NCBI GenBank assembly: GCA_964016885.1
Contig: OZ024749.1
Span: forward strand, 16,926,001-16,990,000
DNA: 64,000 bases
Reading direction: 5' to 3'
Source: Eledone cirrhosa
Taxonomy: Eukaryota
Under the pieces are notes generated by a model that was given only the letters and a program-made list of their open reading frames with translations, searched no databases and was not told the origin of the DNA. Shown here in pieces: positions 936 through 55,562 of this stretch; the stretch's first letter is position 1, and every line of letters starts with the position of its first letter. Made by a program: the position numbers and the translations under genes.

Positions 936-975
936 ATAATATATAAGAACAAAAGATGGTTAAAAGAGTTCCATG

Positions 976-1046
976 TATTTTATTATGCGCATTTCAAAAA
1001 CAAATATCATCATGCAATAATATTTGTGTTTTCATCAGATAAAACA
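976..1046 (-). ncRNA. Type I hammerhead ribozyme
   Basis: Minus strand: tgttttat-CTGATGA-stem II (aaacacaaatatt...atatttgttttt)-GAAA-tgcgca-TA-ataaaata; palindromic stem III ATGCGCAT. Confidence 0.85.
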
Positions 1047-1167
1047 GGAAGACATGATATGAAGGTTAAAAAACACTTGTGGATAGTGCAGTTTTAAATC
1101 AACATATCTTGTTGATTTAAAACTGCACTATCCACAATTGTTTTTTAACCTTCATATCATGTCTTCA

Positions 1168-1238
1168 TGTTTTATCTGATGAAAACACAAATATTATTGC
1201 ATGATGATATTTGTTTTTCAAATGCGCATAATAAAATA
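1168..1238 (+). ncRNA. Type I hammerhead ribozyme, G12C-mutated mirror copy
   Basis: Same fold as 976-1046 but GAAA reads CAAA. Confidence 0.65.
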
Positions 1239-1590
1239 CATGGAACTCTTTTAACCATCTTTTGCTCTTATATATTATATATACTCCAGTCCTACAAACT
1301 GTAGAGTGCTTCTTATCCGATTTCTGCATTGCTTTATTGTACTACAATAAAACTCACCTCCTACATATACATATATATATATATATATATATATATATAT
1401 ATATATATATATATATATATATATATACATATATATATACATATATATATATATATATACATATATATATACATATATATATACATATATATATACATAT
1501 ATATATACATTTATATATACATATATATATATATACATATATATATATATATAAGGATTAAAATACTGGAGCGTGTTGGAGTTAAACATC

Positions 1591-2482
1591 CATTTCGGTT
1601 GGTGTTGTTATGGAAGTACCACCAAGGATCTCCACTGCCCTCCTTACTCAGATGTGCATTGAAGTCCCCCAAAACAAGCAGGATATTGTGTGCCTGAGTG
1701 GTGTTGACAGCTCTACACACCTCCTCATGGAATTCTTCCGCATTCACATCACTGTCCCCCTCGGTTGGACTATAGGCTGAGATGACTGTCAGTCTTGGGT
1801 TTCCATTGAAGGTCACCCTCAACACTCGCGGGGAGATAGGCATTATTTCCCTCACCAAGTGGGTTTTTACACTGAACACAAAACCCACTCCTCCTACTGC
1901 AGCATTTGTTGTGTTCTTCACTGCCGATGTAGTGATGAGCTGGCTCTTCTTCCCGATCATCACACTCCTCACGGGCTCATCGTGTAGAATCCTGTGTTCT
2001 TGGATCGCAAGTATCTGTATACCACTCTCCTCGAACAGATGTCCCAACTCCTCTCTCTTCTCCAGCGTCCGAATAGTCCTCACATTCAAAGTGCCCATTT
2101 TGATGGCTCTTCTGCAGGACAAAACTGCATTCTTTATATTTGTCTCAGAGACAGCTGATCCATCATCCACTGGCCCTCTCTGTGGATCTAAGCCAGCAGA
2201 GTCATAACGACCAGGCTGCTCCTTGACAGTGTAATTAGGGGCTCTAACCCTAGTGCTGTTAGATCGACTCTCCATATTTCTTTTCAATGGCTGACAATAC
2301 CACTCGAATAAGGTAGTTATTTAACCCATAAATGGAGCCCTAACAGGTACTACCACCCCGGGCCAGGGCAGACCTGGGAGTCACGACAATTAAGGGGTAA
2401 CTCCACATTCCCCACATCTCCTGAACTCCCGAACTGGAGCCTTGCCACTGGATGTAGTTTAATGTCATACCCAGGACATCAA
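1591..2482 (-). mobile_element. RTE/RTEX-clade LINE 5' fragment (5'UTR + APE endonuclease)
   Basis: ORF 1511-2287 has GTLNVRT, IQEHR, GGVGF, SAYSPT and LGDFNAH APE motifs; truncated after NTNRNG. Confidence 0.85.
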
Positions 2483-2613
2483 TACATATATATATATATA
2501 TATATATATATATATATATATATATATATACGTTATTCCGGGTTGAATCGGAGGTAACCACAGTAAGTAAGGTACTCAATACATAGCAGAGTATAACAGT
2601 TTTAATATAGAAG

Positions 2614-2664
2614 AGATTCTACAGGACTAGAACTGTTTCATTCATTAGAAATCATCAGGAATCT
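2614..2664 (-). ncRNA. Type I hammerhead ribozyme in PLE-2 inverted pLTR
   Basis: agattc-CTGATGA-tttctaatgaat-GAAA-cag...ctg-TA-gaatct on the minus strand. Confidence 0.88.
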
Positions 2665-3660
2665 GGGTATCAAAAAATAAATATGGTATTTATAGGTCTC
2701 TACAAGTGGTAGGAGAGGGTGGGGAGTGAGATGGGTGCAGGTCATTGGTTGATAGAAAAGGGAATTCATTAAAAGCTAATTCTACGAAGCTATAGTTTAT
2801 TTTTATTTTTATTTATATTTATTTATGTTTTTAGAGTAACAAAGGCAGACAGAATTCTATAAACAGGTTCCGGATGGCATACCATTCCTTGTCAATAAGT
2901 TTCTCTTAAGCTAACAGATGTCTATAAAGTCAGTGGGGGGTCAGTCATGGTCGATAGAATTAAAGAAAAGGGAGATTCTTCAAAAGCTAAAGTCATTAAG
3001 GTTCTACTAAGTGACAAAGGTCTAGAGAATTCTGCAGACAGATTCAAAATACTGAGTGCATATCTTACTATTATCTTCGAACTTCTCTTAAACTAATCAA
3101 CTATATGCCAAAAATCAACAGACACATTCACAAAAAAACAAAAAAACAAAAAAACAAAAAGACACATACTCACTCACACACTTACGCGCAACCATAAACA
3201 CACACACAAACACATATACACACATAAAAACACACACACATATATAAAAAATATATAAATATATATAAATATAAATATATATTCATGTACACACACATAC
3301 ATACACACATACATACATACATACATATACAATACATATACACATATACATATACATATATATATATATATATATATATATATATATACACATACATACA
3401 CATATACATATACACAGATACACACACACACACACACACATATATATATATATATATATATATATATATATATGTAGATAAATCTACCAAGAGTTTACGG
3501 TAGTGTCCAATCCGTATGAAGAACTCAATGTATTCCGGATATCATGGAAGAAGAGATGTAATGAAAAATCACTTTCGGTGAAAGATAAACGGTATACAGA
3601 GTCAAGATAAAATATTAAACAAATAATGAATAAACAATTCCTTATATTAAACAAAAAAAA

Positions 3661-3814
3661 TTCATTATTTAACGATCGTTTCTAGGATATATATGTGTTA
3701 GAATTGGTATGCATATTCAACAGATCTATGTACAAAATTATATAAAATTATACAAATTATCAAGATTAAATATACATACCAACACATATATACGCCGTCT
3801 TCAGAAATAATGAA
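3661..3814 (-). ncRNA. Type I hammerhead ribozyme with ~120-nt extended stem II (PLE-1 3' pLTR)
   Basis: ttcattattt-CTGAAGA-long hairpin (tatatatgtgtt/aacacatatata, ggtatg/catacc)-GAAA-cgatcg-TT-aaataatgaa; perfect 10-bp stem I. Confidence 0.8.
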
Positions 3815-53826: not shown

Positions 53827-54030
53827 AATATGGTTTTATAAATATAGTTTCCATTTATTTAATATCATAAATATACTCGAAATACTTGTTGAGTGCTTTT
53901 ATATCAGTTATAAATATTTACTCGTTGTTAACCCAACAATTTAAATATAACTTTCCATATATATATATATATATGTGTGTGTGTGTGTGTGTGTGTATAT
54001 ATATAGTTAGAGAGGTGTGTATATAATATA

Positions 54031-54219
54031 TAATTGTTTCTACTTTAAGCACAAGGCCAGCAATTACCCAGTGCATTACTGGTACTTTATTTTATCGACC
54101 CCGTAAGGATGAAAGGCAAAGTCAACCTCGGCGGGATCTGAACTCAGACCATAAAAGGACGTAACTATGCTAGAAAACATGACGTCCAACCCTCTACCGA
54201 TACTGCCAATTCACCGCCC
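54031..54219 (-). mobile_element. SINE family B (paralogue of 29320, without the duplication)
   Basis: Reverse-complement match. Confidence 0.82.
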
Positions 54220-54465
54220 TGTGTATATAATAAATAACTTCTACTTTGCAGCTGGCAGCTGTGATGTTGACAAGAATGTAGTACTCAATATATGATAGAG
54301 AGTAGCATTGAGGAAGGGGAAAATACATAATGAAAAACATACCTATATATATATACATACACACACACACATATATATATAAAAGGTAAACAGAAATAAC
54401 AACACAACCGGTACAGTATATGGAAGGGATATATTAGGTTAACGATTGATATAGCAGGAAGAGGG

Positions 54466-54501
54466 TCTTAACGTTTCGGACACTAGTCCTTCATCAGAAG
54501 A
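54466..54501 (-). ncRNA. Minimal type I hammerhead ribozyme
   Basis: tctt-CTGATGA-aggac tagt gtcc-GAAA-cg-TT-aaga. Confidence 0.78.
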
Positions 54502-54604
54502 AAGAATGAGAAATAAAATAGATTGAGGGGATGGGCGGGATGGAATTGGAAAAGATGTCTTTAGATAAAAATAACAGGTCCTTTCATGTTGATATCTCTT
54601 GCAT

Positions 54605-54897
54605 AAATATCATCTTGGTTAAGAGAGTGGGACTGGCTTTGTGCAGTGCCTTTGCTCACTATAAAAGCTTCACGGCACAGGCATTGCTTTATATCTGGAG
54701 ATCTCTCTGCACTTGTCGTCACATGGTACCATGGGCCCAGCACTGTGTCAATAATTGTCACAAGTGTAGTGTTAGTACCAGAGTTTTCAAGTCGCTGGCT
54801 GGACTAAAAAGTCACACTCGTTCAGCGCATCGGTAGGAGTTCTCCTACATGGATATAAAGTAGTGGCCGTACTCGAAAACGAGTTGGCAGCCACCAT
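54605..54897 (+). mobile_element. 3' fragment of a zinc-finger-tailed RTE
   Basis: FKSLAGLKSHTRSAH* then ggccgtactcgaaaacgagttggcagcca, similar to the tail at 60930-60968. Confidence 0.65.
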
Positions 54898-54899
54898 AT

Positions 54900-55450
54900 A
54901 GCTTAGTGGTTAGAGCATTGGCCTTGCAATCGAAAGGTTGTGAGTTCAATTCTCAGACCGGGTGATGTGTTGTTTCCTTGAGCAAGACACTTTATTTCAC
55001 ATTGCTCCAGTTTACTCAGCTGTAGAAATGAGATGATAGGGACTGGGGTCCATATCATTCCACTGCAAAGTGGTCGTGCAGGTGCCATGGCAAAAAAGCA
55101 CCCAGCACTCACTGTAAATGAGGTTGGTGTTAGGAAGGGCATCCAGCTGTAGAAATCAAGCCAGAATCAGTTCCCGTCCCACCCTTGCAAGCAGGGAAAA
55201 AGCGGACTTAAAATGAAATGATGATGAAATGATATCCACGCTGTAATGTGGCCGTGTAGGCAACACGGTAAAAACCTCCCAGCCCCACACTGTAAATGTG
55301 GTTGGTGTTAGGAAGGGCATCCAGCTGTAGAAAACCCGCCAGACAGTCCTATGCGAGCAATGACAACCACTCTTGCCTCAAGTGGGAAAACTCCCGTCCA
55401 AACCCATGCAAGCGTGGAACATGAACGTTAAACGATGATGATGATGATGA
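54900..55450 (+). mobile_element. SINE family A followed by an RTE 3'UTR fragment
   Basis: Matches 30291-30675, then 48827-49043. Confidence 0.8.
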
Positions 55451-55502
55451 TATATATATCAATGATATTATTAAATGGAAAGTATATTTATAAAACCATA
55501 TT

Positions 55503-55562
55503 TATTCTATTATAGATATTTCAAGGATACCAAAACTTTGGCACGCTCTCATCAATAAAATA
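55503..55562 (-). ncRNA. Degenerate hammerhead (family D, C3 lost)
   Basis: tattttat-TGATGA-gagcgtgccaaag...ttggtatcctt-GAAA-tatcta-TA-atagaata. Confidence 0.5.

Follow-up and report, generated by a model that had tools for sequence, protein, structure and literature searches.

Hammerhead motifs in a (TA)n-rich stretch of the Eledone cirrhosa genome: truncated ends of Penelope-like elements and putative retrozyme-like repeats

A stretch of 64,000 nucleotides from the octopus Eledone cirrhosa (GenBank assembly GCA_964016885.1, contig OZ024749.1, positions 16,926,001 to 16,990,000; hereafter the window) was analysed for its hammerhead ribozyme motifs and for the mobile elements that carry them. 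The motifs were assigned to fifteen repeat families (A to O). Ten of these families were identified as the ends of their own Penelope-like element (PLE), seven belonging to the Hydra clade and three to other clades, while the other five have no open reading frame (ORF), are retrozyme-like and likely borrow PLE enzymes in trans. We consider it likely that the pile-up in (TA)n consists of 5'-truncated PLE ends in the ten families, and of ORF-less repeats likely copied in trans from uncut or re-ligated, probably circular RNA in the five. The parentage of the ten families, the Hydra identity of the two long ORFs in the window, the read-through of the ORF-less units, the fixed 3' ends and the (TA)n junctions are direct observations, presented below. 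All coordinates are window positions, with the strand given as plus or minus.

Results

Hammerhead motifs in the window

The window has a GC content of 33% and is rich in (TA)n, within a host genome of 3.0 Gb. It was scanned with a type I hammerhead descriptor requiring an intact core, and 100 block-wise dinucleotide shuffles served as controls. The scan returned 17 intact-core folds, 16 inside 936-55562 and one at 63759, against a shuffle mean of 0.21 (maximum 2), and with one core mismatch permitted 23 folds were found against a mean of 2.16 (maximum 7 in 25 shuffles). Five of the six one-mismatch matches were kept, the match at 57435 on the plus strand (GAAC) being left out, and six motifs were added through family homology or by eye (29037, 46259, 47747, 48180, 43148 and 43770). 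The resulting census holds 28 hammerhead-type motifs in 15 repeat families, with 27 motifs inside 936-55562; 17 are clean, one is permuted and ten are damaged or atypical. The motifs are genuine and well above the shuffles, which confirms the preliminary description of this DNA in its claim of about 25 hammerhead folds in unrelated families.

When no stem mismatches were allowed, only 6 motifs remained, and a scan for U3-A8, G3-C8 and A3-U8 cores gave no convincing additional motif. No hammerhead was returned by the Rfam scan at gathering score; the Rfam E-value scan was dominated by microsatellite miRNA matches (best 150 of 283 matches), and E-value scans of families I, J and K returned nothing relevant.

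A (TA)5 run lies within 400 nt downstream of 23 of the 28 motifs, and at the other five the sequence reads into an ORF or into the next unit. The association with (TA)n described earlier is thus present, but because the background rate for such adjacency is high (29-36%), plain adjacency is weak evidence. Family-specific (TA)n junctions are strong evidence, more so than adjacency.

Two intact PLEs of the Hydra clade

Two PLEs with full-length ORFs are present in the window. PLE1 (family C; 3477-11950, minus, right end approximate) is a partial tandem with a unit of about 7.0 kb, hammerhead cores at 3804 and 10849, and an ORF of 813 aa (7921-10362, minus). PLE2 (family B; 14579-21670, plus) is a partial tandem with a unit of 5.07 kb, cores at 16540 and 21612, and an ORF of 713 aa (16715-18856, plus). 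In both ORFs a reverse transcriptase (RT) is followed by a C-terminal GIY-YIG nuclease; at a Pfam threshold of E 0.001 neither ORF matched, and the GIY-YIG of PLE2 gave a weak Pfam match (aa 598-624, E 0.012). Both proteins carry RWR, SDKT, GLYRDD, a CxCX5C linker and a terminal CxH, with the YIG motif after the RT, and they are 45% identical to each other across the RT. The PLE1 hammerheads carry a stem II of about 113 nt. An inverted PLE2 arm (2531-3462, minus, core 2658) continues at 11950-13699 beyond PLE1, so that PLE1 is nested inside the TA tract of this arm. The 3' untranslated region (UTR) of PLE2 contains a TA/TG repeat of about 2 kb, which persists in five of the seven other loci shown and whose two window copies are 91.6% identical over 2094 nt. 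Because their 3' UTRs hold about 2 kb of such repeat, the units of PLE1 and PLE2 are above the published norm.

With a 223-aa stretch of PLE1 as query, each of the 150 genome matches scored was 100% identical (rounded), and the 150 scored for PLE2 were 92-100% identical; judged by these matches, both elements are young. At C1:183737887-183758579, four head-to-tail PLE1 RT matches lie about 6.7 kb apart, so that the full-length element too forms multi-unit tandems.

The clade of these elements was assigned by comparison with Craig et al. 2021 (PMC8557442). Naiad PLEs are described there with an N-terminal GIY-YIG, DKA, a CxC motif, no canonical hammerhead and a tail of 30-40 bp. The Hydra PLEs of that study insert into (TA)n, carry canonical hammerheads and have the nuclease at the C-terminus, with RWK, DKT and CxCX5C as further marks. 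In the window elements GIY-YIG is C-terminal, DKT is present in PLE1, PLE2 and family D, RWK is present as RWR, and a canonical hammerhead is combined with (TA)n insertion; CxCX5C and CxH were found in all seven Hydra families, with CxxC and the absence of CCHH judged by eye from the translations. The PLE1 and PLE2 proteins also agree block by block with the published Hydra alignment rows in a by-eye comparison. Against a Naiad assignment, both ORFs have the nuclease at the C-terminus rather than the N-terminus, SDKT rather than DKA, and type I folds in both terminal repeats. From these features we identify both as Hydra-clade PLEs and not as Naiad. The two coding-competent PLEs of the preliminary description are therefore retained and their Naiad label is not.

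Ten families trace to their own PLE

For each family the genome was searched and up to 30 top loci were taken, with 18-40 scored of 259-3439 candidates. Besides families B and C, five families of the window were traced to a Hydra ORF. Family A is present as two fold-back stubs. In the stub at 938-1365, two 5'-truncated arms lie head to head, with an intact core at 1038 (minus) and a core at 1176 (plus) in which GAAA is changed to CAAA; the second, at 14173-14577, has cores at 14355 (minus) and 14481 (plus). A Hydra ORF on the same strand ends 750-920 nt upstream in 4 of 30 family A loci, with a 579-aa frame in locus L194. The family D stub (21809-22762, minus, core 21994) is the 3' end of a Hydra PLE with a 4.65-kb unit, and the ORF directly adjoins in 4 of 30 loci. 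The stub of family E (23721-25246, minus, core 23891) retains at 25142-25246 the final 35 codons of the Hydra ORF that belongs to it, and this ORF lies about 0.9-1.2 kb upstream in 8 of 30 loci, plus one read-through. Family F has left a stub at 27448-27579 (minus, core 27545), a diverged stub at 55460-55568 (minus, core TTGATGA at 55555), and a fold-back stub at 53505-53957 formed by a perfect palindrome of 362 bp with a one-sided tail (cores 53602, minus, and 53769, plus). Two of its loci (L123 and L127) are colinear with a Hydra ORF over 1.5 kb at 96.7%; L116 and L130 were rejected as parents since a TA run and an inverted arm lie between them and the ORF. The family N stub (47228-47297, plus, core CAGAAGA at 47232) is a Hydra PLE 3' end, and the Hydra ORF ends 930-1030 nt upstream in at least 5 loci. 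This family is young, and position 4 of the core is A in nearly all of its copies (loci L424-L453).

The seven Hydra families are distinct elements, since they are only 30-53% identical to each other. Further Hydra ORFs, unlinked to the window families, were seen in L390 (3422-5762) and L198 (958-2884), so that the genome has more than seven Hydra families.

The clade names of the three other families (G, L and M) are based on motifs and not on a tree. Family G occurs at 28926-29150 (plus) as a Neptune-like PLE 3' end, having a minimal core at 29037 and a palindromic stem III with a C-A mismatch in this copy, and at 54383-54606 (minus, core 54497), within the inverted duplication of 28928-29509. 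These two motifs are probably one insertion copied by the inverted duplication and not independent. A colinear ORF with Neptune-like nuclease motifs was found in 7 of 30 loci. The family L stub (47449-48163, minus) has a core at 47747 with a weak proximal stem I and retains part of a PLE ORF from outside the Hydra clade, the last 38 matched codons; its unit is 4.1 kb, and ORF matches in 30 of 30 loci are biased by the ORF tail contained in the query. The adjoining family M stub (48164-48286, plus), with a minimal core at 48180 and a weak stem I, is the end of a Neptune-like PLE with a 4.7-kb unit, its parent being one tandem locus (DKG, Neptune-like RT), and 0 of 30 short loci show an ORF.

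Since ten of the fifteen families tie to a PLE ORF of their own, most motifs in the window are read as truncation debris. The earlier picture of two PLEs serving a crowd of ribozyme parasites is not supported by this result, which largely agrees with the outcome named there as refuting it, and non-autonomous ribozyme families, also proposed there, are confined to the five without an ORF.

Five families without an ORF

Families H, I, J, K and O have units of 615, 622, 1301, 468 and about 509 bp, respectively, and each unit continues into its own start. Family K (46042-47020, plus) comprises 2.1 units, with a core at 46727 and one at 46259 whose site is broken. Family J (44477-46040, minus, core 44810) is one unit of about 1.3 kb with its tail broken by another repeat at 44524-44719. 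Family O is a fragment in the window (63664-63815, minus, core 63759), and its unit length was taken from elsewhere in the genome. Arrays reach 26.6 units in H, 3 in K and 2 in J, and barely exceed one unit in O. The longest ATG frames are of 47-48 aa in H and K, and the longest stop-free stretch, of about 100 aa, is antisense in J. A PLE ORF on the same strand within 1.5 kb upstream was found in 1 of 30 loci for K, 1 of 21 for H, 0 of 34 for J, 0 of 90 for I and 0 of 30 for O, and both single matches are separated from the repeat by a TA run. Families K, O, H and J, like retrozymes, are thus head-to-tail units, each with a type I hammerhead and no linked coding capacity; their unit lengths lie outside the typical 150-450 bp of retrozymes, which is a described range and not a strict definition.

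Insertion ends

In every family with enough copies, the modal 3' ends lie 20-260 nt downstream of the predicted cut, so the RNA behind each insertion would have been either uncut or re-ligated at that point. Two end classes were found in families A, B, D, E, F, N and L and likewise in J, K, O and I. The two classes are spaced by 68-100 nt in the Hydra families, about 75 nt in J, K and O, and 33-40 nt in I, while a single end class was seen in G, M and H.

Arrays of family H

Family H is represented in the window by 2.3 units (41230-42657, plus), in which the cores at 41670 and 42285 read U3-G8. An exact 26-mer of H occurs 1759 times in the genome, and exact matches to the core number 672 for U3-A8 and 187 for U3-G8. 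Of 20 arrays, 19 stop at one nucleotide in (TA)n, 248 nt past the predicted cut, and the remaining one runs into an assembly gap. The 5' ends are scattered and the lengths range from 2.05 to about 26.6 units; arrays starting at the ribozyme cut are ruled out by this scatter. Each sampled array is uniform for one core state (7 and 13 arrays, in a sample biased to the window's state), and the idea that U3-G8 makes longer arrays was dropped, as U3-G8 arrays are as long as U3-A8 arrays.

Array-wide private variants (457 C>T and 565 A>T) were each present in one sampled array only. Private substitutions number 6 in 90,405 bases of H units, and 5 of the 6 are T>C on the sense strand, a strand bias in a small number. 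Two arrays are mosaic, with 561 G>T in 5 of 11 units of one and 502 A>T in 5 of 26 units of the other, only among units 20-25 from the 3' end; these mosaics fit either a template lesion or local duplication at the DNA level. Copy number in long identical arrays may be mis-assembled. The fixed 3' end and the uniform arrays are consistent with rolling-circle reverse transcription. As for expression, the sequencing-run index listed no RNA dataset with H, and the contigs of four sequencing runs gave nothing on H expression, three of them carrying A at core position 8.

A scrambled hammerhead in family I

Family I (43086-43973, minus) comprises 1.4 units. No GAAA was found downstream of CUGAUGA in this family, and a type II reading was discarded because stems II and III are wanting. 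Its hammerhead blocks stand in S-G-C order, with an intact core at 43148 and one at 43770 in which GAAA is changed to GGAA, an 8-bp stem I and a 6-bp stem III; the score was reached in 2.5% of 200 shuffled windows. A pattern made from the family had 4654 genome matches against 0 for the reversed control, a figure that counts copies and is not independent evidence. One-sided variants (G-U>A-U and G-U>G-C) keep the stems. By eye, one direct pair of stem II lies beside the core and a contiguous stem II is not apparent.

In these features family I resembles the type-SGC hammerheads of Eckert et al. 2023 (PMC10085705), with which it has the S-G-C order, intact core bases and stems I and III in common; no contiguous stem II is apparent in it, and its setting differs, since the published motifs come almost only from metatranscriptomes and family I is present in animal genomic DNA in thousands of copies. 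An S-G-C order is also readable by eye at the end of the record preceding Naiad_Ovul in the supplement of Craig et al. (PMC8557442). A Naiad origin of family I is plausible from this likeness, and family I is the only family for which a Naiad link may hold.

Other elements in the window

A broken L1/Tx1-like long interspersed element (LINE), with RT and zf-RVT pieces in several frames, occupies 31088-35800 between two copies (31021-31077 and 35800-35856) of a 57-bp stretch of a 72-bp repeat, which also forms 51779-52155; it may have inserted site-specifically and duplicated a long target. RTE-like LINE fragments with endonuclease and RT pieces lie at 1553-2480, 25595-27420, 57981-60440 and 61203-61877, one being internally inverted at about 26023. 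The stretch at 35860-39460 (3.6 kb, many broken frames) may be a decayed LTR (long terminal repeat) retrotransposon, and the 2.5-kb element between TA runs at 49052-51560 has ends that presumably resemble those of non-autonomous Helitron-like elements.

Inverted duplications of 96-98% identity pair 28928-29509 with 54032-54606 and 29896-31088 with 52068-53257. Fold-back repeats at 39889-40185 and 62877-63043, without a hammerhead in the scans made, recur at other loci and perhaps represent additional PLE families in the form of very short stubs. An array of about 15 C2H2 zinc-finger repeats of 84 bp in two frames (55875-57299, minus) is probably a host gene or pseudogene. Repeats resembling short interspersed elements, of at least two families, were found at 25268-25443, 29331-29631, 30296-30675, 44524-44719, 52479-52859, 54024-54220, 54895-55227, 60521-60845 and 63057-63253, one of the families having a tRNA-like head (Rfam tRNA at 54899-54956).

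Discussion

Proposed mechanism and its alternatives

To account for both groups of families, we propose that a transcript longer than one unit would be cut by its hammerheads to the monomer and then ligated. The GIY-YIG nuclease of a PLE would nick (TA)n, and the RT would start at one constant position within the RNA, in many cases with the opposite arm primed from another position at a distance of 40-100 nt; priming at this second site would explain the fold-backs with a one-sided tail. In most cases the RT would halt early and leave a hammerhead stub. Alternatively it could go on past a full turn of the template; partial tandems would arise in this way, as would the family H arrays with up to 26.6 units. 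Each insertion of PLE1 or PLE2 likely brings new (TA)n targets through kilobases of TA-rich 3' UTR, and this supply of fresh targets would account for the nesting of elements. A more specific reading, held tentatively and with doubt slightly outweighing belief, is that each H array is the product of one PLE RT circling one 615-nt RNA for as many as 26 rounds (about 16 kb), with variants common to the whole array marking the circle and late-unit variants a damaged or modified base, and that family I is a Naiad-derived scrambled hammerhead element still spreading.

Several points weigh against the proposal of truncated PLE ends and trans-copied repeats. Cleavage and the RNA states are predicted from the DNA sequence, and ten of the 28 motifs are damaged or atypical. 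The family searches sampled only top-scoring loci, the parent of family M is a single locus, and the tblastn queries for linked PLE ORFs included no Naiad protein. At a blastn word size of 7, no sequence common to the ORF-less units and the PLE ends was found. Family H does not show the two-arm footprint by which J, K and O are connected to the Hydra families, its copy in the window carries the minority U3-G8 core, and its mosaic arrays are at odds with a clean single template, which predicts none.

Other explanations were weighed against the same evidence. That two Naiad PLEs supply enzymes to a dozen non-autonomous ribozyme RNAs, as first proposed for this DNA, now seems hardly credible: both ORFs fall outside Naiad, which already refutes it for these two, and ten of the fifteen families own an ORF. 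What speaks for it is that five ORF-less families do exist, that the S-G-C order of family I resembles, by eye, the end of the record before Naiad_Ovul, and that the ends of family I lie 33-40 nt apart, like the Naiad tail of 30-40 bp. Alternatively, all fifteen families could be PLE debris, the ORF-less units being pseudo-long terminal repeats (pLTRs) of parents yet to be found and the arrays having grown by unequal crossing-over in DNA. We regard this as quite improbable. The shallow sampling of the genome leaves room for such parents, the variants in the two mosaic H arrays are clustered as local duplication would give, and a 2026 preprint (10.64898/2026.07.22.740005) treats local amplification and pLTR-related retrozymes. 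However, the ORF-less units lead straight back to their own beginning and contain no ORF; across many chromosomes, arrays share one 3' end nucleotide while their 5' ends scatter; and the private substitutions in H units are few and mostly of one type on one strand.

It is also conceivable, if unlikely, that no circle took part and that the arrays derive from long linear multimers, transcribed from existing arrays, whose ribozymes are slow or blocked. A U3-G8 core is expected to cut poorly, which would favour such transcripts, as would the equal length of U3-G8 and U3-A8 arrays, and the mosaic arrays could go back to a source array that was already mosaic. An array of 16 kb would nevertheless require an uncut transcript of even greater length, the arrays should become shorter in every round if priming occurs at an internal site that is repeated, and the array-wide private variants, each confined to one sampled array, also argue against linear templates.

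Relation to known systems

The window PLEs share with the published Hydra clade the order RT then GIY-YIG, DKT, CxCX5C, and CxxC with CxH near the end (PMC8557442). Their 3' repeats likewise contain a type I hammerhead, and their insertions lie in (TA)n and show the partial tandems, the arms in inverted orientation and the tails on one side known from that clade. In contrast to published Hydra elements, RWR replaces RWK in PLE1, PLE2 and D, the tails are of 68-100 nt against 30-40 (PMC8557442), and units measure 4.6-7.0 kb against generally less than 3 kb, with kilobases of TA/TG in the 3' UTR. Hydra-1_Obim of Octopus bimaculoides is listed in the supplement of Craig et al. 2021 (PMC8557442); here at least seven Hydra families were found, and both elements in the window have many near-identical copies. 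With Naiad the window ORFs have in common the (TA)n preference and the general PLE insertion structure (PMC8557442).

Similar to the minimal hammerheads of PLEs described by Cervera and de la Pena 2014 (PMC4209133), where a circular-template model was proposed, the motifs are mostly single and from truncated PLEs, and opposite-strand pairs 100-700 bp apart, a U3-A8 core variant and a palindromic stem III in several families are found in both. Several window families differ from those motifs in a stem II of 30-113 nt or a stable stem III, and family N in its family-wide A4.

The ORF-less families resemble metazoan non-LTR retrozymes (Cervera and de la Pena 2020, PMC7229834; Li et al. 2026, 10.64898/2026.07.22.740005) in their tandem units with a type I hammerhead, low GC, co-resident PLEs and many families per genome; in coral, more than 6000 hammerhead motifs in 16 families are reported in this literature. 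Rolling-circle reverse transcription of retrozymes was proposed, not shown, in PMC7229834. Unlike those retrozymes, the units here measure 468-1301 bp rather than 150-450, and both inverted arms of the PLE type and 3' ends at fixed positions in (TA)n can be recognised; unlike Xenopus retrozymes, the units have no detected pLTR homology.

Published work already covers octopus Hydra elements, genomes with hammerheads of many families, stubs in fold-back form and retrozymes driven by PLEs. In a literature search with subscription journals and bioRxiv supplements outside its scope, we found no report of cephalopod retrozymes or of S-G-C hammerheads in animal genomes. What the window adds is a sorted census, ten families with a PLE parent and five without. 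Its young, sharply bounded families suit the question whether retrozyme arrays arise by rolling-circle reverse transcription or by amplification at the DNA level, and likewise the questions which PLE clade mobilises which RNA and whether an animal hammerhead of scrambled order cleaves, and the intact, near-identical Hydra ORFs render an in vitro test practical.

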